The notes beneath the pieces were generated by a model, which was given only the letters and a program-made list of their open reading frames with translations, was not told the DNA's origin and did no database searches. From the NCBI RefSeq assembly GCF_050320075.1, contig NZ_CP190018.1: a stretch of DNA of 64,000 bases, one strand, 5' to 3'. A program made the translations under genes and the position numbers. Numbering within the stretch: the first letter of the stretch is position 1; each line of letters starts with the position of its first letter. Positions 1 through 15,050 of this stretch are shown here, piece by piece. Source of the DNA: Escherichia coli (GTDB taxonomy: Bacteria; Pseudomonadota; Gammaproteobacteria; Enterobacterales; Enterobacteriaceae).

Positions 1-1497
1 ACGCTGCCGAACTTCCCGATTGAAGGGCGCGACCTTAACCCGCTGTTGCAGGATCCGGGGTTGATCTTCCATCCGCCTCTGCTCTATATGGGGTACGTCG
101 GCTTCTCGGTGGCGTTTGCTTTTGCCATTGCTTCTTTGTTGAGCGGGCGTCTGGACAGCACTTATGCGCGTTTTACTCGTCCGTGGACACTGGCAGCGTG
201 GATCTTCCTGACGCTCGGCATCGTGCTCGGTTCCGCATGGGCCTATTACGAACTCGGCTGGGGTGGCTGGTGGTTCTGGGATCCGGTAGAAAACGCCTCG
301 TTTATGCCGTGGCTGGTGGGGACTGCGCTGATGCACTCACTGGCGGTCACTGAACAACGCGCCAGCTTCAAAGCGTGGACATTACTGCTGGCAATCAGTG
401 CCTTCTCGTTGTGTCTGTTGGGGACTTTCCTCGTGCGTTCCGGCGTGCTGGTATCGGTACACGCGTTTGCCTCTGATCCGGCGCGCGGCATGTTTATCCT
501 CGCCTTTATGGTGCTGGTGATTGGCGGTTCGCTGCTGCTGTTTGCTGCGCGTGGACACAAAGTTCGCTCACGCGTAAACAATGCGCTGTGGTCGCGGGAA
601 TCTTTGCTGTTAGCGAACAACGTTTTGCTGGTCGCCGCGATGCTGGTGGTGTTGCTGGGGACGCTGTTGCCGCTGGTGCACAAGCAACTGGGACTGGGCA
701 GTATTTCGATTGGCGAACCGTTCTTCAACACCATGTTTACCTGGCTGATGGTGCCGTTTGCGCTACTGCTTGGTGTCGGTCCTCTGGTGCGCTGGGGGCG
801 CGATCGCCCACGTAAAATCCGCAATTTATTGATTATCGCCTTCATCTCTACGCTGGTGCTGTCTCTGCTGTTGCCGTGGCTGTTCGAAAGCAAAGTTGTG
901 GCGATGACGGTGCTCGGCCTGGCAATGGCCTGCTGGATTGCGGTGCTGGCAATTGCGGAAGCTGTGCTGCGTATTTCACGCGGCACGAAAACCACCTTCA
1001 GTTATTGGGGAATGGTGGCGGCTCACCTGGGGCTGGCAGTGACAATTGTTGGTATTGCCTTTAGCCAGAACTATAGCGTTGAGCGTGATGTGCGCATGAA
1101 GTCCGGTGATAGTGTCGATATTCATGAATATCGCTTCACCTTCCGTGATGTCAAAGAGGTGACTGGCCCGAACTGGCGTGGCGGTGTGGCGACTATCGGC
1201 GTAACGCGCGATGGCAAGCCGGAAACGGTGCTGTATGCGGAAAAACGTTATTACAACACTGCTGGGTCGATGATGACCGAAGCGGCAATTGACGGCGGCA
1301 TCACGCGTGACCTGTACGCCGCGCTCGGTGAAGAGCTGGAAAACGGCGCGTGGGCCGTGCGTCTTTACTACAAACCGTTTGTTCGCTGGATTTGGGCGGG
1401 CGGGCTGATGATGGCATTGGGCGGGCTGCTGTGTCTGTTTGATCCTCGCTATCGTAAGCGCGTGAATCCGCAGAAAACTGCGCCGGAGGCTGTATGA
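1..1497 (+). CDS. ccmF: Cytochrome c-type biogenesis heme lyase CcmF, 5'-partial (frame is open from base 1; gene runs off the window start)
   Basis: Long polytopic membrane protein ORF with WWFWDPVENAS motif typical of CcmF; stop overlaps start of next gene (ATGA); synteny with ccmG/ccmH. Confidence 0.9.
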   Translation, partial: TLPNFPIEGRDLNPLLQDPGLIFHPPLLYMGYVGFSVAFAFAIASLLSGRLDSTYARFTRPWTLAAWIFLTLGIVLGSAWAYYELGWGGWWFWDPVENASFMPWLVGTALMHSLAVTEQRASFKAWTLLLAISAFSLCLLGTFLVRSGVLVSVHAFASDPARGMFILAFMVLVIGGSLLLFAARGHKVRSRVNNALWSRESLLLANNVLLVAAMLVVLLGTLLPLVHKQLGLGSISIGEPFFNTMFTWLMVPFALLLGVGPLVRWGRDRPRKIRNLLIIAFISTLVLSLLLPWLFESKVVAMTVLGLAMACWIAVLAIAEAVLRISRGTKTTFSYWGMVAAHLGLAVTIVGIAFSQNYSVERDVRMKSGDSVDIHEYRFTFRDVKEVTGPNWRGGVATIGVTRDGKPETVLYAEKRYYNTAGSMMTEAAIDGGITRDLYAALGEELENGAWAVRLYYKPFVRWIWAGGLMMALGGLLCLFDPRYRKRVNPQKTAPEAV

Positions 1498-2051
1498 AGC
1501 GCAAAGTATTGTTAATTCCGTTGATTATCTTCCTGGCGATTGCCGCGGCGCTGCTGTGGCAGCTGGCGCGTAATGCCGAAGGGGATGATCCGACCAATCT
1601 GGAATCGGCGCTCATTGGCAAGCCAGTGCCGAAGTTTCGTCTCGAATCACTGGACAATCCGGGGCAGTTTTATCAGGCGGATGTGCTGACTCAGGGCAAA
1701 CCAGTGCTGCTTAACGTCTGGGCGACCTGGTGTCCGACCTGCCGTGCGGAACATCAATATCTGAATCAGCTTTCTGCGCAGGGCATCCGCGTGGTCGGCA
1801 TGAACTATAAAGACGATCGCCAGAAGGCAATCAGCTGGCTGAAAGAGCTGGGCAATCCTTACGCACTAAGCCTGTTTGATGGCGACGGCATGTTAGGACT
1901 GGATCTCGGTGTCTATGGCGCGCCAGAAACGTTCCTCATCGACGGCAACGGCATCATTCGCTATCGCCATGCGGGCGATCTCAATCCTCGCGTCTGGGAA
2001 GAAGAGATCAAGCCGCTGTGGGAGAAATACAGTAAGGAGGCCGCACAATGA
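1494..2051 (+). CDS. ccmG: Thiol:disulfide interchange protein CcmG/DsbE
   Basis: 185 aa, N-terminal membrane anchor, thioredoxin-like WCPTC active site (WATWCPTCR), translationally coupled to ccmF and ccmH. Confidence 0.9.
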   Translation: MKRKVLLIPLIIFLAIAAALLWQLARNAEGDDPTNLESALIGKPVPKFRLESLDNPGQFYQADVLTQGKPVLLNVWATWCPTCRAEHQYLNQLSAQGIRVVGMNYKDDRQKAISWLKELGNPYALSLFDGDGMLGLDLGVYGAPETFLIDGNGIIRYRHAGDLNPRVWEEEIKPLWEKYSKEAAQ

Positions 2052-3100
2052 GGTTTTTATTGGGCGTGCTGATGCTGATGATCTCCGGCTCAGCGCTGGC
2101 GACCATCGACGTGTTGCAGTTTAAGGATGAAGCGCAGGAGCAGCAGTTCCGGCAACTCACTGAAGAACTACGCTGCCCGAAATGCCAGAACAACAGCATT
2201 GCCGATTCCAACTCGATGATTGCCACCGACCTGCGCCAGAAAGTGTATGAACTGATGCAGGAAGGTAAAAGTAAGAAAGAGATTGTCGATTATATGGTGG
2301 CGCGTTACGGCAACTTCGTCACTTACGATCCGCCGTTAACGCCGCTGACCGTGCTGCTGTGGGTGCTTCCGGTAGTGGCTATTGGCATTGGCGGTTGGGT
2401 CATTTACGCCCGTTCGCGGCGTCGGGTACGCGTGGTGCCGGAAGCGTTTCCTGAACAAAGCGTGCCGGAAGGTAAGCGTGCCGGATTTGCTGTTTACCTG
2501 CCGGGTATTGTTGTGGCGTTAATTGTGGCTGGCGTCAGCTACTACCAGACTGGCAACTATCAGCAGGTGAAAATCTGGCAGCAGGCCACGGCACAGGCTC
2601 CGGCGTTACTGGACAGGGCGCTGGATCCGAAAGCCGATCCGCTCAACGAAGAAGAGATGTCGCGCCTGGCGCTGGGGATGCGTACTCAACTGCAAAAAAA
2701 TCCGGGAGATATAGAAGGCTGGATTATGTTGGGCCGCGTTGGCCTGGCGCTGGGTAACGCCAGTATCGCCACCGATGCATACGCTACTGCGTATCGCCTC
2801 GATCCGAAGAACAGCGATGCTGCACTGGGATACGCTGAAGCGTTGACACGTTCATCTGATCCCAACGACAACCGCCTCGGCGGCGAACTGCTGCGCCAGT
2901 TGGTGAGAACGGACCATAGCAATATTCGTGTGTTAAGCATGTATGCGTTTAACGCCTTTGAGCAGCAGCGATTTGGCGAAGCCGTTGCCGCGTGGGAGAT
3001 GATGTTGAAACTCTTACCTGCCAACGATACTCGCCGTGCGGTGATTGAACGTAGTATCGCGCAGGCGATGCAACATTTGTCGCCGCAGGAGAGTAAATAA
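2048..3100 (+). CDS. ccmH: Cytochrome c-type biogenesis protein CcmH (fused CcmH/CcmI type)
   Basis: 350 aa; N-terminal LRCPKCQNNSIADS motif, transmembrane segments, TPR-like C-terminal half; last gene of ccm operon. Confidence 0.85.
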   Translation: MRFLLGVLMLMISGSALATIDVLQFKDEAQEQQFRQLTEELRCPKCQNNSIADSNSMIATDLRQKVYELMQEGKSKKEIVDYMVARYGNFVTYDPPLTPLTVLLWVLPVVAIGIGGWVIYARSRRRVRVVPEAFPEQSVPEGKRAGFAVYLPGIVVALIVAGVSYYQTGNYQQVKIWQQATAQAPALLDRALDPKADPLNEEEMSRLALGMRTQLQKNPGDIEGWIMLGRVGLALGNASIATDAYATAYRLDPKNSDAALGYAEALTRSSDPNDNRLGGELLRQLVRTDHSNIRVLSMYAFNAFEQQRFGEAVAAWEMMLKLLPANDTRRAVIERSIAQAMQHLSPQESK

Positions 3101-4101: not shown

Positions 4102-6693
4102 ATGCATCAATCTGGTTCTGTTTCTCTTTGTCGTTCCGCAATATCTGTTCTGGTGGCTACAGCGTTATATTCACCCATAGCATTGGCATCAACAGTTGAG
4201 TATGGTGAGACAGTTGATGGTGTTGTCCTGGAAAAAGATATCCAGCTGGTTTATGGGACCGCCAATAATACGAAAATCAATCCTGGCGGAGAACAGCATA
4301 TTAAAGAATTTGGTATAAGTAGTAATACTGAAATTAACGGCGGGTATCAGTACATTGAAATGAATGGCACCGCAGAATACTCAATATTAAATGATGGTTA
4401 TCAAATTGTTCAAATGGGTGGTGCGGCAAACCAGACTACCCTCAATAATGGTGTGTTACAGGTTTATGGCGCAGCGAATGAACCTACGATTAAAGGCGGG
4501 CGCTTAATTATTGAAAAAGATGGGATTACCGTCTTTGCCGCTATCGAAAAGGGAGGATTACTGGAGGTTAAAGAGGGGGGATTAGCATTTGCGGTAGATC
4601 AGAAAGCCGGCGGTGCGATTAAAACAACCACCCGGGCCATGGAGGTATTCGGAACAAACCGTCTCGGTCAGTTCGATATCAAGGATGGTATTGCTAATAA
4701 TATGCTGTTGGAAAACGGCGGAAGTTTGCGAGTTGAAGAAAATGACTTCGCTTATAATACCACTGTGGATAGTGGCGGCTTACTGGAGGTTATGGATGGC
4801 GGGACTGCAACTGGCGTTGATAAAAAAGCAGGCGGAAAATTAATTGTCTCAACGAATGCGCTGGAAGTGAGTGGTACAAACAGTAAAGGCCAATTTAGTA
4901 TAAAAGATGGTGTGTCAAAAAATTATGAACTGGATGATGGTTCCGGGCTCATTGTTATGGAGGACACGCAGGCCATTGATACTATCCTTGATGAGCATGC
5001 CACTATGCAATCGCTGGGAAAGGATACTGGTACGAGAGTGCAGGCAAATGCGGTATATGATCTCGGTCGATCAGATCAGAATGGAAGTATCACGTATTCC
5101 TCAAAAGCCATCTCTGAAAATATGGTTATCAACAATGGCCGCGCTAACGTCTGGGCTGGCACAATGGTTAACGTTTCAGTCAGAGGGAATGATGGCATTC
5201 TTGAGGTCATGAAGCCGCAAATAAATTATGCGCCCGCAATGTTGGTGGGTAAGGTAGTGGTTTCTGATAGCGCTTCTTTTAGAACGCATGGTGCCGTGGA
5301 TACCAGCAAAGCGGATGTTTCGCTCGAAAATAGCGCATGGACCATCATTGCCGATATCACTACGACGAACCAAAACACTCGCCTCAACTTAGCCAACCTT
5401 GCGATGTCTGGCGCAAATGTGATTATGATGGCTGAGCCAGTGACTCGTTCATCTGTGACGGCAAGTGCGGAAAATTTCATTACGTTGACCACCAATACCC
5501 TGTCGGGAAATGGCAATTTTTATATGCGTACCGATATGGCTAATCATCAGAGCGATCAGCTCAACGTCACCGGTCAGGCAACAGGTGATTTCAAAATATT
5601 CGTGACGGACACCGGTGCCAGCCCGGCAGCAGGAGATAGCCTTACACTGGTAACAACGGGCGGCGGTGATGCTGCATTTACGTTGGGCAATGCCGGAGGC
5701 GTTGTTGATATCGGTACGTATGAATATACCTTGCTGGATAATGGCAACCATAGCTGGAGCCTCGCAGAGAATCGCGCGCAAATTACCCCTTCAACCACTG
5801 ATGTGCTGAACATGGCAGCAGCACAACCGCTGGTATTTGATGCAGAACTGGACACCGTGCGTGAGCGTCTTGGTAGCGTAAAAGGCGTTAGTTACGATAC
5901 GGCGATGTGGAGTTCGGCAATTAACACCCGCAACAACGTGACCACTGATGCGGGAGCTGGCTTTGAGCAAACATTGACGGGCCTGACGCTCGGTATCGAT
6001 AGCCGTTTCTCCCGTGAAGAAAGCAGCACAATTCGCGGCTTGTTCTTTGGTTACTCTCATTCTGATATTGGTTTTGATCGCGGCGGCAAAGGTAATATCG
6101 ATAGCTACACCCTGGGGGCTTATGCCGGTTGGGAGCATCAGAACGGTGCCTATGTTGATGGAGTGGTGAAAGTTGACCGTTTTGCCAACACCATCCATGG
6201 CAAGATGAGTAATGGAGCAACAGCGTTTGGCGATTACAATAGTAACGGCGCGGGTGCTCATGTCGAGAGCGGGTTCCGTTGGGTTGACGGATTGTGGAGT
6301 GTTAGACCCTATCTGGCCTTTACCGGCTTTACCACAGATGGTCAGGACTACACGTTATCAAATGGCATGCGCGCGGATGTGGGAAATACCCGGATATTAC
6401 GCGCTGAAGCGGGAACGGCGGTAAGCTATCACATGGACCTGCAAAACGGTACGACGTTGGAACCCTGGCTGAAAGCCGCCGTGCGTCAGGAATACGCCGA
6501 TTCTAACCAGGTGAAAGTTAATGACGATGGCAAATTTAATAATGATGTGGCTGGAACCCGTGGCGTTTATCAGGCTGGGATAAGGTCATCGTTTACCCCG
6601 ACGTTAAGCGGTCATTTGTCAGTCAGTTATGGCAATGGCGCAGGGGTAGAATCGCCGTGGAATATTCAGGCGGGTGTGGTCTGGACGTTCTGA
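4102..6693 (+). CDS. yejO: Autotransporter (type Va) outer membrane protein, intact 863 aa
   Basis: N-terminal signal peptide, long Gly/Thr/Asn-rich repetitive passenger, C-terminal beta-barrel ending in WTF; SD-like AGGATGA upstream of the ATG. Confidence 0.75.
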   Translation: MHQSGSVSLCRSAISVLVATALYSPIALASTVEYGETVDGVVLEKDIQLVYGTANNTKINPGGEQHIKEFGISSNTEINGGYQYIEMNGTAEYSILNDGYQIVQMGGAANQTTLNNGVLQVYGAANEPTIKGGRLIIEKDGITVFAAIEKGGLLEVKEGGLAFAVDQKAGGAIKTTTRAMEVFGTNRLGQFDIKDGIANNMLLENGGSLRVEENDFAYNTTVDSGGLLEVMDGGTATGVDKKAGGKLIVSTNALEVSGTNSKGQFSIKDGVSKNYELDDGSGLIVMEDTQAIDTILDEHATMQSLGKDTGTRVQANAVYDLGRSDQNGSITYSSKAISENMVINNGRANVWAGTMVNVSVRGNDGILEVMKPQINYAPAMLVGKVVVSDSASFRTHGAVDTSKADVSLENSAWTIIADITTTNQNTRLNLANLAMSGANVIMMAEPVTRSSVTASAENFITLTTNTLSGNGNFYMRTDMANHQSDQLNVTGQATGDFKIFVTDTGASPAAGDSLTLVTTGGGDAAFTLGNAGGVVDIGTYEYTLLDNGNHSWSLAENRAQITPSTTDVLNMAAAQPLVFDAELDTVRERLGSVKGVSYDTAMWSSAINTRNNVTTDAGAGFEQTLTGLTLGIDSRFSREESSTIRGLFFGYSHSDIGFDRGGKGNIDSYTLGAYAGWEHQNGAYVDGVVKVDRFANTIHGKMSNGATAFGDYNSNGAGAHVESGFRWVDGLWSVRPYLAFTGFTTDGQDYTLSNGMRADVGNTRILRAEAGTAVSYHMDLQNGTTLEPWLKAAVRQEYADSNQVKVNDDGKFNNDVAGTRGVYQAGIRSSFTPTLSGHLSVSYGNGAGVESPWNIQAGVVWTF

Positions 6694-6755
6694 TAACAGA
6701 AAATAAACAGGCCGTGATGTGTCGCGGTCTGTTTATCGAATTAAATGCAGATATA

Positions 6756-6788
6756 AAAAAACCAACCGTAAAGGTTGGTTTTTTTTGG
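6756..6788. terminator. Bidirectional intrinsic terminator (ACCAACC-GTAAA-GGTTGGT flanked by A-run and T-run)
   Basis: Perfect 7-bp stem with A7 upstream and T8 downstream; directly followed by a degenerate copy of the tRNA-Pro 3' end, so it likely marks the island's right junction. Confidence 0.6.
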
Positions 6789-7162
6789 GATTTTTGGCAC
6801 GAGAGTAGTTTAATTGAGCCTGTAACTGTATGATTTTAAAGATGTAGATTAATTGAGTTTTGAAATCGTATATCCAAACGTATAACTAAAATGATTTGCT
6901 GCAAAAATGTACAGCTTTAACCGTTATCATTTTCCGGCTATTCGCTATGAAGCTGGCTGGTGGATAAGCACGGATAACCTGACATCTACAGCCGCCTTAA
7001 AAGCTGAACCCGACAAGCATATCGGCATCATGCCCACCAGCGTGACGCATTTTTTTAATTGCGCGGGCGTAAAAATTTGACGGGGCGGACAGTTCCATAA
7101 GTAATGGATTGCAGGAATTTCGCCCCCCCTCCTGAATGCAATTTTTCGTATATATATACAAA

Positions 7163-7290
7163 ACCACCCGTCCCACCTGTCCCGCCTGTCCCACTGGCAC
7201 CTAACAAATTGATTTTGTTAGAAATAAATTAGGTAAGGTAGGACAAGTCCAGGCTGTTTTGGGACAAGTTGGGGGGGAGGTGGGACAAGT
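7163..7290. repeat. Iteron block 1: three GTCCC units at ~10-bp spacing, 8-bp palindrome CTAACAAA-N5-TTTGTTAG, three GGGACAAGT units at ~21-bp spacing
   Basis: Read directly: TCCCACCTGTCCCGCCTGTCCCA at 7169-7194; palindrome at 7201-7221; G(G)GACAAGT at 7241, 7261, 7282. Confidence 0.6.
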
Positions 7291-7824
7291 CGAGCGAGTG
7301 AATCAAGCCGTGTTAGCGCGGTAAAGCGACAGTGCCGCCGCAATTTTGCGTTGTCGGGAGGCCACCGTAACAGCCACCATACGCGCACAATCTTCGGTGG
7401 TAACGCAATCCAGACGTGCGCAACATCCCCAGATAGGAAATCATTACCTAGCACAGCTAATTGCGCCAGAATCGATTACAGCGCGTTTCTGTGGCATTCA
7501 AGAACGGCTATCACTAGTGTATTGATATGTAATCCGCATATGAGTTTAAGCAACAAAATGATCCCCTTTCGAAAAAGGCACTAACCGTTTTTTCCGAAAT
7601 GATCCGTTGGTGATTTTGTAACTTATTGTTTTGTAGATGTAATTTTAAACTTGATAGGGTTATAAATAGGGGGCGTTTTTGTCAAGAATTGCAAATAATG
7701 CTCGTTTATTGTTCTTTGTTTGTTTGTTTTCTGTTCGTTGATGGGGGATCATTTTGCACTTTTTGGGGGATCATTTCGGAGGGGGGGGGCTGGCAACACG
7801 CCAGCACCCTCGATGCGTTTGTTT

Positions 7825-8034
7825 TTAGCAGTACTCCCAGTCTGTGGCTAGTAGGCTCTCAGGAGATAGCGTAACGCTATCCTCTGTGACGGGATTCAAC
7901 GCAATCAAATCGTTTCCGCGCCGTTCGAGAAAGACGATGTACGGAAGATGCCAGGCACTGCGGCGAGCTGGCACGCGTCGGCCTGGCTGCAACTTGTCGA
8001 GAATATCCACCAGCGAAACGTTCATGTGATTCAA
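7825..8034 (-). CDS. Hypothetical small protein (69 aa with TTG start; 66 aa from internal ATG)
   Basis: ORF with AGGAG about 5 nt upstream of the TTG; last gene of the ssb-finO-perC cluster; no recognisable family. Confidence 0.35.
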   Translation of the reverse strand: MNHMNVSLVDILDKLQPGRRVPARRSAWHLPYIVFLERRGNDLIALNPVTEDSVTLSPESLLATDWEYC

Positions 8035-8090
8035 AAAACTCCTGAAACGCTCTACAACTCAATAACACAAAAAATAATGCAGAACTGCCA

Positions 8091-8375
8091 CTATAAAACC
8101 TTGTCTGTCTGGTAGTTCCGCCAGACAGATTTTGCGATTTCTATCCCCATATCCGCCTGTGTGCGGTGTGCTGCCTCTCTCAAGCTCCCGAAATTATCCA
8201 GCATGACGGGCGAACGTGCTGCCTTGTGGATACATTTCGCGCGACGCTTTACTGCCTGTTCGCGCTCCTTATCGGTGTTCACCTGTTGCATGACCTCAGC
8301 CCATCGGGCCGCCGCTCTCCGGTACAGGCCTTTAGCCTCCAGATCTTCCGCTTTGCTGTCGTGAATCATACTCAT
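8091..8375 (-). CDS. PerC-family transcriptional activator-like protein (94 aa)
   Basis: Motif EDLEAKGLYRRAAARWAEV resembles the PerC family signature; start ATG overlaps stop of upstream gene (ATGA coupling). Confidence 0.5.
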   Translation of the reverse strand: MSMIHDSKAEDLEAKGLYRRAAARWAEVMQQVNTDKEREQAVKRRAKCIHKAARSPVMLDNFGSLREAAHRTQADMGIEIAKSVWRNYQTDKVL

Positions 8376-8908
8376 ACGCCAGCTTGCTCCTTGTTCGACT
8401 TACGTTTGCGCTTCTCTTTCAGTGCCATCAGTCGTGCTTCCGCGTCCTGCTGTTCCTGTTGTGTCACCTCGCCGCATGGCTGGCTATTCAGATCGTAACG
8501 CACGCCACCAGCCATTAAGGCACGGTAATAACGCGGAGAATGAGCATAAGATGCTAGCGCCGCACGTAATGCCCCTGACCCAAAAGCCAGCGCCCTGACG
8601 GCAATATCCTGTATCAGGTCTTCAAATATTCCTACCTTAAGCGGCTTCGGTGATTCCAGGCTGAATAATTCAGGCCATAGTTCAATAAGACGGTTAACGC
8701 GCCTGCGGTTTTTGCCCTGGCGTTTGGTCATATGCCGCCACGGTGTCGCCCCTGTGGGCTTCTGTTTGCGGCTCTGCTGTGCGTTCTGATTGCCGGGTAT
8801 CACTTTATGCGCTGATGTGGTTTTATCCTGCTGCTGTGTCGTCTGTGTCTTTTTCTGTGGTATGCCGTAAATGCCTTTCGGTTTTCTGCTAATAGTCAGT
8901 GTAGTCAT
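8372..8908 (-). CDS. ProQ/FinO-domain RNA-binding protein (178 aa) with basic low-complexity N-terminal extension
   Basis: C-terminal two thirds align by eye with E. coli ProQ N-terminal domain (PLKVGIFEDL..., LRAAL.SY..S.RY...GG.RYDL...PCGE). Confidence 0.6.
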   Translation of the reverse strand: MTTLTISRKPKGIYGIPQKKTQTTQQQDKTTSAHKVIPGNQNAQQSRKQKPTGATPWRHMTKRQGKNRRRVNRLIELWPELFSLESPKPLKVGIFEDLIQDIAVRALAFGSGALRAALASYAHSPRYYRALMAGGVRYDLNSQPCGEVTQQEQQDAEARLMALKEKRKRKSNKEQAGV

Positions 8909-8943
8909 TATTTGTTAACCTCTGTTAGTGAATCCACTGGCAG

Positions 8944-9369
8944 TTAAAATGGTATTTCGTCCTCATACGGGTCATCCTGCTGGCCCGTCTGCTGCTTTGT
9001 TCTGTTCAGTGCGTCAGTAGCCTGCCCTTGCTGTCCTTTCCTGCCTCCTGGTCGCACGGTTCGCGCACTGATTACGCTGCCTGCGATGACCTGCCAGCCC
9101 TGCCGCATTTCCCCGTTCTGGTCTGTCCACTGGCTTATCTGCATGTTACCCGCCACGCTCACCAGTTCGCCTTTCTGGTGTTTTGCCAGTGCATCGGCCT
9201 GTCTGCCAAACGCCAGGACGGATAACCACATCGTCGCTGTTCCGTCATATGCCTGACTGCACGGAAGGGGAACAGCCATACTCACCAGCGCCATTGGTGT
9301 TCCCTTGCTGGTGGTTTTTAACTGCGGGTCAGCCACCAACCGCCCGTAAGCTGATATTTGTGCCGTCAT
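8944..9369 (-). CDS. ssb: Single-stranded DNA-binding protein (SSB-like, 141 aa)
   Basis: OB-fold pattern similar to E. coli SSB (W..V.AFG, WTDQNG) and acidic C-terminal tail EDEIPF (cf. DDDIPF). Confidence 0.6.
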   Translation of the reverse strand: MTAQISAYGRLVADPQLKTTSKGTPMALVSMAVPLPCSQAYDGTATMWLSVLAFGRQADALAKHQKGELVSVAGNMQISQWTDQNGEMRQGWQVIAGSVISARTVRPGGRKGQQGQATDALNRTKQQTGQQDDPYEDEIPF

Positions 9370-9444
9370 ATTGTCTGCTCTCCGGTTTTAAATGTTGGTT
9401 GGATTTTTAATGTCCACCAGCCAGGCAAAAAATAACGCCTGCTG

Positions 9445-9580
9445 ACTTGTCCCAAAATGCTCCTAACTTGTCCCAAAATCACCTTAACTTGTCCCGCTCT
9501 TGTCCCACTTTTTCTGATATTACCCAATATAATTCAGTATGTTATGTGTGTTTCTCACAGGTTGGGACAGGTGGGACAAG
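9445..9580. repeat. Iteron block 2: four ACTTGTCCC units (~21-bp spacing) plus GGGACAGGTGGGACAAG; inverted copy of block 1
   Basis: ACTTGTCCC at 9445, 9466, 9487; TTGTCCC at 9500; GGGACAGGTGGGA at 9564-9576 is the exact reverse complement of TCCCACCTGTCCC in block 1. Confidence 0.6.
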
Positions 9581-9605
9581 AGTCTTTAAACCTACACGCG
9601 AGAGA

Positions 9606-11741
9606 TTAACCACCTTCATCATCATGATCCTGTGCAAGTAAAAGGCCGTACACCCTTAGTCGTGCCCCCTTCATGTGCTTAAGACGTGGTGTTCTGATTT
9701 GCCATCCTTCCCCGCTGGCTGGCTTTTTCAGCATTCCGGCTTCGTGAAGGGCTCTTGCTACGGCATCCTTGTTAAATCCCTTCGCCACATGCGATTTAAA
9801 TGGCTCCGGCAGGACGTAAAACAAAACAGGCTCACCGTAACGCCCCTCGCTTTCCCTGTAGCCGTACAGTTCTGAAATCGGCAGGCTTGCAGGGTCATAA
9901 TTGACAGGCGCAAACCTGCTCATGCCGTAGGCAGTAAGAAATGCCTCTGCCTGTTCAATAATCTGCCTGTGTTCCTTGTTACCCGTGCCGAACTCCTTCA
10001 CCCAGGCATTAAAGTTATGCTGAATGGCATCACAGCACGTCTGAACATTCCAGCCCGTAACATGACCGGACAGCACAAGCGCGGCCTCCAGTATGGCGAA
10101 TCGTTCCCCTACGCGATGAACCTGTTCGCCGTAGCTCTCCGGTATTAGGTTGCGCCACCGTTCACGGCACGCCCTTACCGTGTCCTTAGCCTCCTGCTGG
10201 TGGGCTGCCAGCCATTTAACCCATTCACGACCCGCCGCCCCGTGGTTTTCTGTCCAGGCGGCTTTTAACGCGTCTGCGTGCGCCTTTCCTGTGCTGTATT
10301 CGTGAAACTGCGTAGACTTCTCCATCGGCACGTTAAGCAACCTGACAAGCTGCCCCGCCTTGACTTTTATCCCCTCACTTTTGAGGAATGTTTCAACATC
10401 CATTTCTCCGGTACTGATCGCCACCGTGCGCCAGTGTTTTATCTCCCGGTTGCCGCCGTCCTTCGCCCCCTGTAATTTCCCGGAACCGTTAAACAGCGTA
10501 TAGGCTGACGTGGACACCTCCCGCGCGTTTCCGGCCTGGCCTATTTCATCCAGGGGTAACAGCCCGTCGTTGTGCGCCTCTGCCTCGTTAGCGATACCTA
10601 ACGCTGTGCCGTACCAGGTCAGCCGTTGCGCGTCCGGCTCTCCCCATAAACTTGATGCGATGTTCTGTGTGGTGGTTTTCCCTGCCGATGATTGTTCGAA
10701 AAGATGTACCCCGAAGCCGTCAGCGCCCACCAGCCCGATTAATGGTGCTGATAACGATACCGCCACACCCAGCATCATGGACGGATTACCACCAGCCAGT
10801 CGCGCCACTGTATCGCGCCAGCCCTCTGTCGTTCCTGCTACGGAATAACCATTAACGGCAGCCGTTTTTCCGGTAAACAGGATCGGTTTTTCAGACTCAC
10901 CAATGACTGAACCGTCCGGCATGATGTACGCGCCAAAATGCCACCCCGTTGTTGTGCTTAACTGCCATTCCTCATGGTTTCCGTTTAACTGCATCCAGTC
11001 AGCCAGGATAGCCCTGTATTTGCCGTTGGTTGTCACATTGAGTCCGTGGTCTTTCAGCAGCCGCCAGCCGTCACGGTCGCCAATGCCACCGCACGGGATC
11101 GCCATTGTGATGACTTCATGATTTGCTAATTTTTTCCAGCGCATCACGCGGTAATGCTCTTTACCGATCGTTCCCGTTCCCAGTAGTTCAAGCGGGGAAC
11201 ATAACCACGCCTCAGGCCGGATAATTTCGCCTGACTGTTTGTCAACTTTGGGCGTTACCCAGAAAACACCATCGGCGCGACTTTCAACGCGGGGTTTTAA
11301 TTCATCATCGCCCTGGCTTTCTGTGATTTTTTTCTTTAAGGGCAACACCAGACTTTCCCCGCGCTCGTATTCGTCTTTGAGGCGAGGCAACTGGTCGGAT
11401 AAATCCGCCGGGCTGGTGTCAGTTATCCCCGCATATTCGTATACGGTCTTCACGCCAGCCACAGCCAGCAATGTGACGATCTGTGTAAGGCTACGTTCAG
11501 TGATGTGCCCTGCGCGGTAAACACGCACACACTGACGGCTATCATCAATAATCTGATAACCGGTAATATCTTTCAGGTGTTCATCTGACAGAACGACAGG
11601 CGGCACATTGTCGGCGGCAATATGCTTACCTGCCCATTCCTGCCACTCTTTCGCATGGCTCCACGCATCACTACCCGCAAAAATGATAACCTCCGTCATT
11701 TTGTCGGCTGGCTGGTGCTTTAAGTTCGGTGCGCGTTTCAT
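9606..11741 (-). CDS. Replicative primase-helicase (TOPRIM-like N-terminus plus P-loop NTPase, 711 aa)
   Basis: Walker A-like SSAGKTT, large size, position downstream of int/alpA as in P4 alpha-type and PICI pri-rep genes; start overlaps upstream small ORF. Confidence 0.75.
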   Translation of the reverse strand: MKRAPNLKHQPADKMTEVIIFAGSDAWSHAKEWQEWAGKHIAADNVPPVVLSDEHLKDITGYQIIDDSRQCVRVYRAGHITERSLTQIVTLLAVAGVKTVYEYAGITDTSPADLSDQLPRLKDEYERGESLVLPLKKKITESQGDDELKPRVESRADGVFWVTPKVDKQSGEIIRPEAWLCSPLELLGTGTIGKEHYRVMRWKKLANHEVITMAIPCGGIGDRDGWRLLKDHGLNVTTNGKYRAILADWMQLNGNHEEWQLSTTTGWHFGAYIMPDGSVIGESEKPILFTGKTAAVNGYSVAGTTEGWRDTVARLAGGNPSMMLGVAVSLSAPLIGLVGADGFGVHLFEQSSAGKTTTQNIASSLWGEPDAQRLTWYGTALGIANEAEAHNDGLLPLDEIGQAGNAREVSTSAYTLFNGSGKLQGAKDGGNREIKHWRTVAISTGEMDVETFLKSEGIKVKAGQLVRLLNVPMEKSTQFHEYSTGKAHADALKAAWTENHGAAGREWVKWLAAHQQEAKDTVRACRERWRNLIPESYGEQVHRVGERFAILEAALVLSGHVTGWNVQTCCDAIQHNFNAWVKEFGTGNKEHRQIIEQAEAFLTAYGMSRFAPVNYDPASLPISELYGYRESEGRYGEPVLFYVLPEPFKSHVAKGFNKDAVARALHEAGMLKKPASGEGWQIRTPRLKHMKGARLRVYGLLLAQDHDDEGG

Positions 11742-12025
11742 TTCTTGCCCCCAGTAACCAGCATTTCGCGGATTTTGCGGATATATCTTGCTGCACGGTT
11801 CTGATTTACGGTTTCACGATGATCCACCAGCGTAAAATCACGCTGGAACTGATAAACAGGCATCACGCAGTCATATTCGTATCCTTCACGGCGGTAGGTC
11901 ATGCGTCGTTCACTCACGCCCTTAATCATTACCGTGCTGCCGTATTTATCGCGGTAAATATCGCCGTGCATGAATTCAGGACGAGTTTTACCGCTGGCAG
12001 TAAAGCCAGAATTTTTTGCTTTCAT
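11738..12025 (-). CDS. Hypothetical protein (95 aa), translationally coupled to primase-helicase
   Basis: ORF stop overlaps primase start codon; coding-like composition; no family recognised. Confidence 0.45.
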   Translation of the reverse strand: MKAKNSGFTASGKTRPEFMHGDIYRDKYGSTVMIKGVSERRMTYRREGYEYDCVMPVYQFQRDFTLVDHRETVNQNRAARYIRKIREMLVTGGKK

Positions 12026-12064: not shown

Positions 12065-12250
12065 TTAATGAACTGTCGCCACTTCAATTACGGCACGGAT
12101 CATCACCTGCGTGAACCCACAGCCGATTAACTCTTCTTTCAATATTGCGATAGCTGCATTAACGCTGGTGGCGTTCACGTTTTGCTGATTATCAATAACG
12201 TGGCCTTGATGATTTACAGCGCGTGCGGTTATCTGAAATCGCTTAAGCAT
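12065..12250 (-). CDS. Hypothetical small protein (61 aa)
   Basis: ORF preceded by GGGGTGAGG SD-like sequence; start overlaps stop of upstream small ORF. Confidence 0.4.
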   Translation of the reverse strand: MLKRFQITARAVNHQGHVIDNQQNVNATSVNAAIAILKEELIGCGFTQVMIRAVIEVATVH

Positions 12251-12431
12251 GCCTCACCCCCTGACGAATACGGGCAGCGAATACAGCAACACAGCCGGAC
12301 GGGCAACAGTTACGCGCTTCTCGTTCGGTTGATGCCTCGACGTGAACAATACGGGAATCAGTCGGATTAAAGATGACAAAGCGCCAGATAAATGTGTTTT
12401 GAGAATGTTCGAGGGTAGGGGTAGTAGCCAT
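12243..12431 (-). CDS. Small protein (62 aa), possibly Icd-like (host cell division inhibitor-like) as annotated in P4-like elements
   Basis: Strong SD AGGAGG 7 nt upstream of ATG; FIWRF and FAAR motifs recalled from Icd-like annotations (memory-based, uncertain). Confidence 0.45.
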   Translation of the reverse strand: MATTPTLEHSQNTFIWRFVIFNPTDSRIVHVEASTEREARNCCPSGCVAVFAARIRQGVRHA

Positions 12432-12640
12432 TTGGCAGCCTCCTGTAACGTTGGGATATACCCACCGCCGGAGGTGGTAAGCTCGATGGCGGTGGACTGT
12501 ACAGGGTTACCACAACTGGTGTTACAGGAAACCAGCCTGACCGAAGTCAGCCCCATACAGCCCACCATTGATAAGGCGTGCGCGTGCGCCGATACAAAAA
12601 AAGACGCCTGGCGCGTCTGTATCGCCTGTAACTCCAGCGG
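12432..12640 (-). ncRNA. Candidate structured regulatory RNA / leader (P4 immunity-like seqA-seqB-seqC arrangement)
   Basis: On the minus strand: GTTACAGG (12632-12625), intrinsic terminator, UUCG-tetraloop hairpin (12550-12537), complementary CCTGTAAC (12528-12521), then GTTACAGGAGG (12449-12439) overlapping the SD of the first ORF. Confidence 0.3.
12595..12618 (-). terminator. Intrinsic terminator inside the leader region (AGACGC-loop-GCGTCT followed by T7 on minus strand)
   Basis: 6-bp GC-rich stem, 5-nt loop, run of seven T on the transcribed strand. Confidence 0.5.
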
Positions 12641-13077
12641 GGTGGTAATCCCGACACCCGTTTTATGAGGTGCGCAGGGAGTATATCCCGTTTTCTTGCT
12701 CATGTGGTCGGATGTGTTGAAGGTGTGCCCACCACACAAATCACATTGCTCACCAGCCGGAAATATGGCATTGTTGGCGATGCATTCAAGTTTAATATAT
12801 GCCTTCTGGCGACCCTCTGCGGTCGCCTTTGTTTTATTCGTAAGCAACATATTTCTTTTGTCGTTTAAGCTATGCGATTGTACGTTTCCGTTTAAAACGG
12901 AAGTGCTATTAGTTCAATTAATTCGTTCGTACGGTTTGAACTGAATAATAACATCAGCCATAATTTTTTATGGTTGAACGAAAACCTGCCCCTGTTTGGG
13001 CATTTTTGCCAGTATTCATAATGTTCTCTCTTAATTGTTTTGTTGCTTGATAGTAATCAGGCCAGCGTTAATCACAC

Positions 13078-13269
13078 TTATGCTTCACGAGTTTCTCTCT
13101 CACGTTCTTTCAACCAGGCGAGTACCTCATCTTCATACCAGCCAATGCGACGCAGCCCGATACGGAATCCTTTGGGGAACCCGCCTTTGTTAACCATCTC
13201 CGTTAGGGTCGAATCAGATTTAATGCGTAGCAAGGCCTTTACCTCTGGTCGTAAAAGAATAGCCCTCAT
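13078..13269 (-). CDS. alpA: AlpA-family phage transcriptional regulator / excisionase-like (63 aa)
   Basis: Small HTH protein with LLR..EV......S.ST......G.FP....IG.R.IGW...EV..WL pattern; position between integrase and replication genes. Confidence 0.7.
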   Translation of the reverse strand: MRAILLRPEVKALLRIKSDSTLTEMVNKGGFPKGFRIGLRRIGWYEDEVLAWLKERERETREA

Positions 13270-13522: not shown

Positions 13523-14767
13523 TTATTTTATTCCGCGTAATCCTCTGTGCCCGCTGGCGATGGTTGTTCCGGTTGCGGCTGCTTCCACAAAATCACCCCA
13601 CCAGCACATTAACACTTTACGTTTTTCCAGGTAGTTGCTTCGGTTGTATGCCCGTCTAACTTCGTTTGTGTCCACGTGGGCTAGTGCGGCTTCGATCACG
13701 TCAGGTTCAAATCCTTCTTCATTCGCCGCCGTGCTGAATATTGCGCGTAGTCCGTGAGATACCAGCACACCAGCGTAACCCATTCGTCGTAATGCTGCGT
13801 TTGCTGTCTGGCTGCTCATTGATTGCACTGGATTTTTAAGACTTGGGAAAACATGCTCCCTTCGTGCGCTAATCGGCTTCATGGCTTCAAGCACTGCCAT
13901 CGCCTGAGCGCAAAGGGGGATCACATGATCACGGCGCATCTTCATGCGTCCGGCTGGTATCGTCCAGGTTGCCGCCTCAAGGTTGATTTCTTCCCACCGT
14001 GCGGCGGAGGCTTCGGCTGGGCGGGTTGCGGTTAACAACTGCCACTCAATCAGCAATCTGGTTTGCCGTTCTATGCTGGCGATCGATAAATCGTGCATTA
14101 GCTGCGGTAGTTGTTCCGGTCGGATGGTTGGCATGTGCTTTTTGGTGGGGGAAGGGAATGCCTTGCGAACGTTCGCGGCGGTGTTGATGTCAATCAGTCC
14201 ACTGTTGGCAGCAAAATCCATCACTTCATTGATGCGCTGTAAAACGCGTTTCAGTGTTTCCAGGTTGCCACGTGCCTTGATGGGCGTGAGTATCTCAACA
14301 AAGCGGCGAGCGGTGAGAGTATCTATCGGTGTGTTTCCGATATACGGGAATACATATTTCTCTAGCGAGCGCCAGATGTCCTTGATCGTATTGTGGGCGA
14401 GATTCTGGTTTTTTTTCATTTCGTACCACAATGCGGCCACATTTTCGAACGTGTTGCCCTGTCGTCGAGCCTCTGCTTCGAGTTTTTGCCGTTCGTATTC
14501 CTGCGGGTCGGTTCCTGCCGCAATTAACGTCCTGTACTCGCTACGGCGTTTTCTGGCATCAGCCAGGGAGACTTCATCAAGCGAGCCCAAACTAATGATT
14601 GTTCGTTTTTTGTTCGATGGTCGATAGTAGTTGAATCGCCATAGTTTCGAACCAGACGGCTTAATAACGAGAAAAAGCCCGCCGCCATCCTGTAAGGTGT
14701 ATTCTTTTTCCGCTGGTTTAGCTGCTTTGATCTGTGTGGTGGTGAGTGGGGTCGCCTTTCTTGCCAT
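13523..14767 (-). CDS. int: Tyrosine site-specific integrase, P4-type (414 aa)
   Basis: N-terminal arm-binding-like domain (LTTTQIKAAKP...GGGLFLVIKPSGSKLWRF), C-terminal catalytic region with HGLRA and terminal tyrosine region; adjacent to tRNA gene. Confidence 0.85.
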   Translation of the reverse strand: MARKATPLTTTQIKAAKPAEKEYTLQDGGGLFLVIKPSGSKLWRFNYYRPSNKKRTIISLGSLDEVSLADARKRRSEYRTLIAAGTDPQEYERQKLEAEARRQGNTFENVAALWYEMKKNQNLAHNTIKDIWRSLEKYVFPYIGNTPIDTLTARRFVEILTPIKARGNLETLKRVLQRINEVMDFAANSGLIDINTAANVRKAFPSPTKKHMPTIRPEQLPQLMHDLSIASIERQTRLLIEWQLLTATRPAEASAARWEEINLEAATWTIPAGRMKMRRDHVIPLCAQAMAVLEAMKPISARREHVFPSLKNPVQSMSSQTANAALRRMGYAGVLVSHGLRAIFSTAANEEGFEPDVIEAALAHVDTNEVRRAYNRSNYLEKRKVLMCWWGDFVEAAATGTTIASGHRGLRGIK

Positions 14768-14973
14768 ACGTTTATGAATCCACGGGAAAAAACAGGTTCT
14801 AGTTATACGGATTTAGCTATGCGCCAGCCCGTATAACTAAACATATAACTAAAAAAAACGGCTGAAAACCACTGTTACCGTCGAATAACGATGACTAAAA
14901 ACAATAAAAAAACCCGCTATTCAATGAATTAGCGGGCTTATTTCATAAAAACGATAATTAATAATGGGCGATT

Positions 14974-15050
14974 TGGTCGGCACGAGAGGATTTGAACCTC
15001 CGACCCCCGACACCCCATGACGGTGCGCTACCAGGCTGCGCTACGTGCCG
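14974..15050 (-). tRNA. proL: tRNA-Pro (anticodon GGG), 77 nt with encoded CCA
   Basis: Reverse complement reads CGGCACGTAGCGCAGCCTGGTAGCGCACCGTCATGGGGTGTCGGGGGTCGGAGGTTCAAATCCTCTCGTGCCGACCA; cloverleaf with GGG in anticodon loop. Confidence 0.9.

Follow-up and report, generated by a model that had tools for sequence, protein, structure and literature searches.

In Gram-negative bacteria, satellites of the PICI type are laid out in a recognisable succession of zones—Integration, Bro-immunity, Replication, and Late (PMC10111431)—and it is the third of these that concerns us here. [quoted passage not shown] That such a pairing can be a replicon in its own right is known by experiment: the Rep and ori of EcCICFT073, and only these two, with no SSB, replicate autonomously (PMC6092414). 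PerC variants are also encoded by PICIs (PMC6092414), and Rfam matches of the C4/isrK type have been described in the Gram-negative ones (PMC10111431).

What, then, is an SSB doing in such company? The SSB of the host is a hub, its tip, DDDIPF, serving DnaG, chi, PriA, and exonuclease I (PMC5872125), and in phage HK620, the loading and stimulation of Sak4 by its partner SSB require the last six residues of that SSB, NDYPPF (PMC5928155). For the SSBs of satellites, which are very common, our literature searches found no paper asking what they do, and no reports of ssDNA binding, oligomerisation, or partner binding by members of the family.

In this paper, we take up one such gene, found in a 64,000-nucleotide stretch of Escherichia coli DNA (which we call the window) and read, in an earlier note made from the letters alone, as a divergent SSB beside a candidate origin. 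The gene is not a new find: its family is annotated in public genomes and has been placed in the replication zone of PICIs (PMC10111431), and the identical protein is already a "single-stranded DNA-binding protein" in RefSeq (WP_088544449.1). Because both gene and setting were annotated or described at the level of the family, the novelty is low, and our work mainly tidies an annotation, in that a "divergent SSB next to an origin" turns out to be the accessory SSB that is standard in PICI-type satellites of enterobacteria. The lead that it offers is wider: does the host-like tip of such SSBs recruit host partners or compete for them, and do these proteins matter for replication of the satellite, for interference with the helper, or for control of SOS?

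The SSB Gene and Its Product

The gene lies on the minus strand at 8944..9369, with an ATG start and, about 10 nt 5′ of the start codon, a GGAG-type ribosome-binding site. Its product of 141 amino acids has an OB domain (residues 1-100), a disordered linker rich in Q, R, and G (residues ~101-131), and finally, a tip, DDPYEDEIPF, so that the protein ends in QQDDPYEDEIPF. Another reading frame, 9366-9527 (53 amino acids, TTG start), which overlaps both the iterons and the start of the SSB gene, was considered and rejected: the iterons translate in it as a repeated GQV, and RefSeq leaves it unannotated.

The earlier note had called for a profile search with PF00436, and that search returns a score of 58.5 bits (cut-off 26; E 7.8e-16) and spans profile positions 3-101 of 104. 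TIGR00621 is likewise above its cut-off (61 bits against 53.95), and the match to PHROG 44, "single strand DNA binding protein," has an E value of 4e-37. In an AlphaFold2 model, built as a monomer from an alignment of 66 sequences, residues 1-100 have a pLDDT of at least 90 and the OB topology beta1-3/helix/beta4-5, while residues 101-141 fall below 60, consistent with disorder. When Foldseek compared this model with the PDB, the best 50 matches were, 50 out of 50, OB domains of bacterial SSBs, with a target-normalised TM of ~0.8. Profiles, model, and structural matches together bear out the SSB-like OB fold that the note had seen. The closest sequence matches in the PDB are the SSBs of Thermus and Thermotoga, not that of E. 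coli.

Three residues of the island protein, W48, F54, and W81, align with the stacking residues W54, F60, and W88 of E. coli SSB, and F54 is invariant in 66 of the 66 aligned sequences. The loop that holds W40 in E. coli is shorter here, and its counterpart is therefore hard to place, Y41 being a possible one. Compared with five island homologues, the OB domain has a dN/dS of 0.09-0.20, from which it follows that the protein has been kept by selection. Judged by its profiles and its model, this is a genuine but ordinary bacterial-type SSB.

Then, there is the tail. A host-like C-terminal tip was the other thing that the note had seen in this protein, and it too holds up: EDEIPF is present, and the full-length close homologues end in IPF in 92 cases of 106 and in PF in 98. 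Across the SSB homologues, the linker varies and the tip has the consensus DDP[Y/F]xDxIPF; representatives at 35-54% identity keep (F)DDxIPF or LPF ends. What shifts within the consensus is charge. The commonest tip among relatives of the island SSB is GDNIPF, much less acidic than the DDDIPF of the host, and the window's EDEIPF belongs to the acidic end of the range. The island tip and the host's DFDDDIPF agree in other respects: both carry an aromatic residue at -7 and Asp at -5, and both close with IPF.

A Small Satellite at tRNA-Pro

The carrier of this gene is an island of ~8.2 kb in the E. coli chromosome, lying between yejO and tRNA-Pro(GGG), with all of its genes on the minus strand. 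Read along that strand, the order is integrase, AlpA-like HTH, isrK/C4, Icd-like ORF, small ORF, DUF4222, and Rep, followed by iterons, SSB, ProQ/FinO, PerC, ~800 bp with a conserved small ORF, a second iteron cluster, a cos-like site, and attR. The integration target is the tRNA-Pro (GGG) gene itself (14974..15050, minus strand; ARAGORN and Rfam), in which the attL core occupies 14979-14996; attR (6796..6813), a partial direct repeat of the 3′ end of tRNA-Pro (GGCACGAGAG...) at the opposite end of the island, matches this core at 15 of 18 positions. Just inside both island ends, at 6867-6905 and 14830-14868, is a repeat of 39 nt (77% identity), CGTATAAC...TATAACTAAAA, and these copies may be arm-type binding sites of the integrase. 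The neighbouring gene yejO, a large autotransporter ORF on the plus strand (4102-6693), is intact in the window (863 amino acids), whereas in the RefSeq genome that carries the identical island it is interrupted by a stop codon and annotated as a pseudogene.

At the tRNA end are the tyrosine integrase (13523..14767; PHROG 1, E 7e-72, and annotation) and the AlpA-like helix-turn-helix regulator or excisionase (13078..13269), which is annotated as an HTH transcriptional regulator in the identical island and whose positional counterpart in a related one (L003) is labelled "AlpA family." Two RNAs, also on the minus strand, come next—isrK (12597-12673; Rfam, 61.6 bits against 50) and the C4 antisense RNA (12485-12572; Rfam, 78.7 bits against 45)—and together (12485..12673) they form an RNA immunity region of the P1/P4 type. 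Beyond them lie the ORF of an Icd-like cell-division inhibitor (12243..12431; RefSeq annotation of the identical island and PHROG matches) and a DUF4222 protein (11738..12025; PF13973, 85.9 bits), which overlaps the start of Rep, as a gene that related islands carry in the corresponding place.

On the other side of the SSB gene, 35 bp after it, starts the gene of a 178-amino-acid protein with a ProQ/FinO domain (8372..8908; PF04352, 87.1 bits), whose matches to the FinO and ProQ subfamilies of NCBIfam fall below their cut-offs. It overlaps by 4 nt the start of a PerC-family transcriptional activator (8091..8375; PF06069, 111.3 bits), and the order SSB-ProQ/FinO-PerC is found also in an O157:H7 island. 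The gene for this RNA chaperone shares the island with the C4 antisense and isrK RNAs upstream of the Icd-like gene, and it is on these RNAs that the chaperone could act; our literature searches turned up nothing relevant on FinO-domain proteins in satellites. Between PerC and the second iteron cluster is a small ORF of 69 amino acids (7825-8034; a weak match to phrog_7206, E 1e-6), to which the "hypothetical protein" listed for this region in some RefSeq genomes may correspond.

A stretch of 4.5 kb, with PerC at one end and the small ORF that precedes DUF4222 at the other, recurs at 100% identity in several RefSeq genomes. Of 5,426 complete genomes, 52, from different hosts and countries, cover at least 80% of its length. 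In strain MRE162 (L010, 2649-11337), the SSB gene of this same island is truncated, and ProQ and PerC are replaced by a block made of a DNA methyltransferase, a DEAD/DEAH helicase, a GIY-YIG nuclease, and IS3 family elements. Another rearranged form of the tRNA-Pro island, that of 2017.11.01CC (L009, 8183-10615), has lost all that lies from Icd through the second iteron cluster, and an IS5 family element adjoins its cos.

What sort of element is this? By the marks used to recognise PICIs (PMC6092414, PMC10111431), integrase and alpA stand together at one end, transcription runs in a single direction, and there is an att site; further along, an initiator, the DUF927 Rep, is followed by two iteron sets around an AT-rich region. 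Of the Late zone there is only a cos-like site (7052..7132), 80.7% identical to the cos region of phage phiP27 (E 1e-8); in the alignment, the 10-nt cos-site annotated in phiP27 falls on positions 7083-7092 of the window, GGGGCGGACA. The same cos module is found at the end of another PICI (L008). A search of the island for terS, capsid, morphogenesis, and redirection genes found none, and no helper prophage was found in the 64-kb window. A phiP27-like, putative cos on an island with neither capsid nor terminase genes therefore suggests a minimal, cos-only satellite, and it is as a small cos-type, PICI-like phage satellite at tRNA-Pro that these features identify the 8.2 kb around the SSB gene. 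The cos match also suggests who might do the packaging: either a helper of the phiP27/HK97 type or a capsid-forming PICI with a P27-family terS.

Origin-Like Units on Both Sides of the SSB Gene

The earlier note had placed an iteron block beside the SSB gene, and the block survives counting. In the 64-kb window there are seven copies of GGGACAAG, against 1.36 expected, and all seven fall within two clusters beside the SSB gene; in 100 shuffles, not one reaches seven. The first cluster, which we call unit A (9444..9582), fills the space between the Rep stop and the SSB start and has four copies of CTTGTCCC (spaced by 21, 21, and 11 bp), ~55 bp that are rich in AT, and then an inverted GGGACAGGTGGGACAAG. 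This is the layout of the published PICI origin (PMC6092414). The second, origin-like cluster, unit B (7168..7291), has the same iteron in a mirror-image architecture: GTCCCAC/GTCCCGC/GTCCCAC at a 9-bp spacing, an AT-rich stretch, and then GGACAAG and two copies of GGGACAAG with a 21-bp spacing.

In the window, 2.15 kb separate the two units, and SSB, ProQ/FinO, PerC, and the 800-bp stretch lie between them. In a DUF927 island of strain 94-3024, the homologue of B (L011:6820-6941) and that of A (L011:6969-7157) are 27 bp apart, just after Rep. Since the homologues are contiguous there, the SSB cassette of the window lies within what this relative keeps together as one bipartite origin. The thought that a second iteron cluster might be a general trait of PICIs was rejected after a k-mer scan of six related islands: in each, the iterons form a single cluster behind the replicase, which makes the split a peculiarity of the lineage to which the window's island belongs. 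It is a rather remote possibility that Rep, bound upstream at unit A and 2.15 kb downstream at unit B, loops out the cassette and in that way, couples replication to the expression of the cassette. A sigma-70 scan of positions 6700-9700 found no minus-strand promoter, and because there was none inside the origin, we have assumed that SSB is co-transcribed with Rep.

From the neighbourhood of SSB and iterons, the earlier note had gone on to suggest autonomous replication, and this was partly right. The SSB gene does lie beside an iteron origin, and in the related EcCICFT073 a replicon of Rep and ori is autonomous; that replicon, however, is defined without any need of an SSB.

A Helicase and Perhaps a Primase

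Rep (9606..11741, minus strand; 711 amino acids) combines an N-terminal Toprim-like domain (residues 1 to ~130) with a DUF927 helicase/initiator. "Primase-helicase," the note had called it, and the two halves of that name have fared differently. The helicase/initiator half stands on a DUF927 match of 157.7 bits in Pfam and on matches to sequences in the PDB, namely 8tch, a SaPI protein entered as "Pathogenicity island protein" (1e-14), and 5dgk, the Cch helicase of SCCmec; against SCCmet_Cch1 of NCBIfam, Rep scores 38.5 bits where the cut-off is 700. For the primase half, there is a Toprim-like fold, modelled with a pLDDT of 88 over residues 1-138, where no Pfam family matches; no zinc ribbon was found in the N-terminus, and the DxD motif is absent from the invariant columns of the domain's alignment. 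Some relatives have a zinc ribbon and Toprim_3 in place of this N-terminus. In DnaG, the motifs are EGYMDV and DGDRAG. The segments of Rep at those positions read FAGSDA and VYRAG, which would mean that the catalytic acidic residues have been replaced. On this showing of sequence and model, "primase-helicase" is an unproven label.

The N-terminal domain travels. Its ~130 residues are common, at 40-64% identity, to replicases of the DUF927 type and of the D5_N/DUF5906 type that work with different iterons, and so the domain is not the iteron reader; it could instead be a module for protein interaction. On one rival reading, the main client of the SSB tail would be found not in the host at all but in the island or its helper phage—the Toprim-like domain of Rep, say, or a recombinase of the helper—and the SSB would be a private loading platform. 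HK620 offers a precedent in an SSB whose tail loads and stimulates its own Sak4 (PMC5928155), and PYGDNIPF, the tip of most members of the family, differs in charge from the tip of the host. We nevertheless think such a private arrangement unlikely, given that a Rep of this type occurs in an island that has no SSB and that the very features that host pockets recognise (aromatic residue at -7, Asp at -5, final IPF) are exactly alike in the two tips.

A Common and Dispensable Accessory

How widespread is this SSB, and how firmly does it belong to its replicon? Among 5,426 complete E. coli genomes, 1,744, or about a third, carry a homologue, and a single genome has as many as six copies. In a collection of 5.8 billion proteins, the family takes up 729 clusters, and among the matches listed, those with an organism name come from Enterobacteriaceae. 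At every locus inspected, the SSB gene is directly downstream of a replicase and of the island's own iterons. Elsewhere, the preceding replicase is a DUF5906/"DNA primase family" protein, a "primase-like DNA-binding" protein, a P4-family primase, or a zinc-binding primase-helicase, and the iterons too differ between islands. Because its neighbours differ in this way, the SSB must be a modular accessory that is not tied to one Rep.

One of the inspected islands with an SSB is a capsid-forming PICI, in which capsid, protease, portal, HNH, terS, and terL come after SSB-PerC. A related DUF927 island runs Rep-ori-hyp-PerC-capsid and has no SSB; in the island of strain MRE162, the gene has been truncated by the methyltransferase/helicase/GIY-YIG block and an IS3 family element; in NCTC86, it is a pseudogene with an internal stop. 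Comparison of these loci, helped by analogy with a replicon that manages on rep and ori, portrays the SSB as an accessory that boosts or buffers replication, dispensable and not a defining part of the replicon.

Two outside sources for the gene were considered. A phage origin was rejected, the best match in the phage collection being at most 32% identical; with nothing above 32% in that collection, the lineage is a satellite or chromosomal one, and no phage sequenced so far can have given up the gene recently. The SSBs of the leading region of conjugative plasmids were rejected as well, since the closest plasmid matches, 52-86% identical, belong to this very family of islands: one comes from a record of 4.9 Mb, and the two records inspected carry chromosomal genes or a phage-like/island gene set. 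The matches on conjugative plasmids are below 60% identity.

Genes that are truncated or broken in relatives invite a gloomy interpretation. Together with the lack of late and capsid genes on the island and the further-deleted derivative at the same tRNA site, they could mean that the satellite is decaying and that its SSB is a relic, inert and without present function. We hold this to be very unlikely, because the reading frame is intact, its dN/dS is 0.09-0.20, and its tip is conserved; the 4.5-kb stretch, covered over at least 80%, is spread through 52 genomes of different hosts and countries; and integrase, AlpA, and Rep are undamaged, as are ori, the att repeats, and the cos-like site.

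One can also imagine that the SSB is alive and is mainly a weapon or a shield: a host-like tip mounted on a divergent OB core would titrate those proteins of the host or the helper that interact with SSB, and the possible outcomes would be interference with the helper phage, damping of SOS or recombination, or evasion of defences that sense a foreign SSB. The idea goes back to the earlier note, which had thought of possible competition with the host for the interaction partners of SSB; what is seen of the tail fits this no better than it fits plain recruitment, be it of host proteins or of a partner encoded by island or phage. PICIs do interfere with their helpers (PMC6092414), and the zone just downstream of the SSB gene holds variable cargo, either PerC and ProQ/FinO or the methyltransferase/helicase/GIY-YIG block. 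The literature that we searched gave no experimental hint of any such thing, however, and a PADLOC scan of the SSB and its six neighbours matched no defence family; a role for the SSB in a defence system was rejected on that count of 0 matches. Moreover, the position of the gene is fixed beside replicase and ori whichever the type of replicase, and a role in replication is therefore favoured over one in combat, which strikes us as quite unlikely.

How the SSB Might Serve the Satellite

That role in replication is the reading we prefer, and we think it probable: the gene would encode a functional, bacterial-type SSB, belonging to the replication zone of a PICI-like satellite, that coats single-stranded DNA and docks host partners during induced replication. 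The course of events might be as follows. Once the island has been induced, the DUF927 Rep would bind the GGGACAAG iterons and melt the AT-rich origin, as we suppose by analogy with the Rep-ori systems of SaPI and EcCICFT073. The SSB, probably made from the same transcript as Rep, would use its OB domain to coat the single strands thus exposed. Its DDPYxDxIPF tip would then dock the proteins that read DDDIPF on the host's own SSB, which is to say DnaG primase, the chi subunit of Pol III, PriA, and exonuclease I, and the replicon of the satellite would thereby be primed and elongated by the machinery of the host. Against this reading count the dispensability of the gene, the weaker acidity of the GDNIPF tip that most relatives have, and the shortness and low glycine content of the linker.

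The docking step is made more attractive by a Rep in which no complete primase can be recognised. Should Rep really have no primase activity, then the recruitment of DnaG would be the key step. From there, it is a short way to a more demanding proposal, in which the SSB is an adaptor: a replicon left primase-less by the degenerate Toprim of its Rep would need the tip of the SSB if DnaG and Pol III chi are to reach the origin that brackets the cassette. Dependence of that degree seems rather unlikely to us, and the SSB that helps a replicon along by coating its DNA and docking host proteins is the one that we carry into the comparisons below.

Comparison with Known Systems

Four kinds of known system come close. 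The first is the E. coli SSB itself (PF00436, tip DDDIPF), with which the island protein has in common the OB fold, the aligned W54/F60/W88, and a disordered C-terminus that ends aromatic-x-D-x-IPF. It is divergent, as the earlier note had said, with 27% identity over 108 residues, and it is smaller, at 141 amino acids compared with 178. The His55 of the host's tetramer interface is Leu in the island SSB, and the linker, ~30 residues in the island, is Q/R-rich with 17% Gly, whereas the linker of the host has 56 residues and 30% Gly. A glycine-rich flexible region in SSB is said, in the title of one paper, to be crucial for the stimulation of PriA.

The second is the SSB of phage HK620, likewise carried by an E. 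coli mobile element, whose essential last six residues end in PF (PMC5928155). It is of another subfamily, the phage collection holding no homologue of the island SSB above 32% identity, and unlike HK620, the island encodes no Sak4-like recombinase.

The third is found in SCCmec, where LP1413 and Cch likewise represent a mobile island that pairs a self-loading DUF927 helicase with a small ssDNA-binding protein of its own (PMC7581432). Rep matches Cch in sequence, weakly. LP1413, however, has a winged-helix fold instead of the OB fold of an SSB, and its gene precedes that of the helicase (PMC7581432), whereas the island's protein, a canonical SSB of PF00436 whose tip is of the host type, is encoded downstream of both helicase and ori.

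The fourth are the SSBs of PICIs and capsid-forming PICIs (PMC10111431; PMC6092414), which are 65-89% identical to that of the window and belong to the same family. In these islands, too, the SSB gene comes after replicase and ori, often with PerC following, in a general order of int-alpA-immunity-replication. The window's island departs from them in having no late or capsid genes and only a cos-like site, and it departs from most relatives in lacking a small ORF that overlaps the SSB start and in having, as the O157:H7 island also has, ProQ/FinO between SSB and PerC. And, unlike the origins of the six other PICIs scanned, the origin of this one is split around the SSB cassette.
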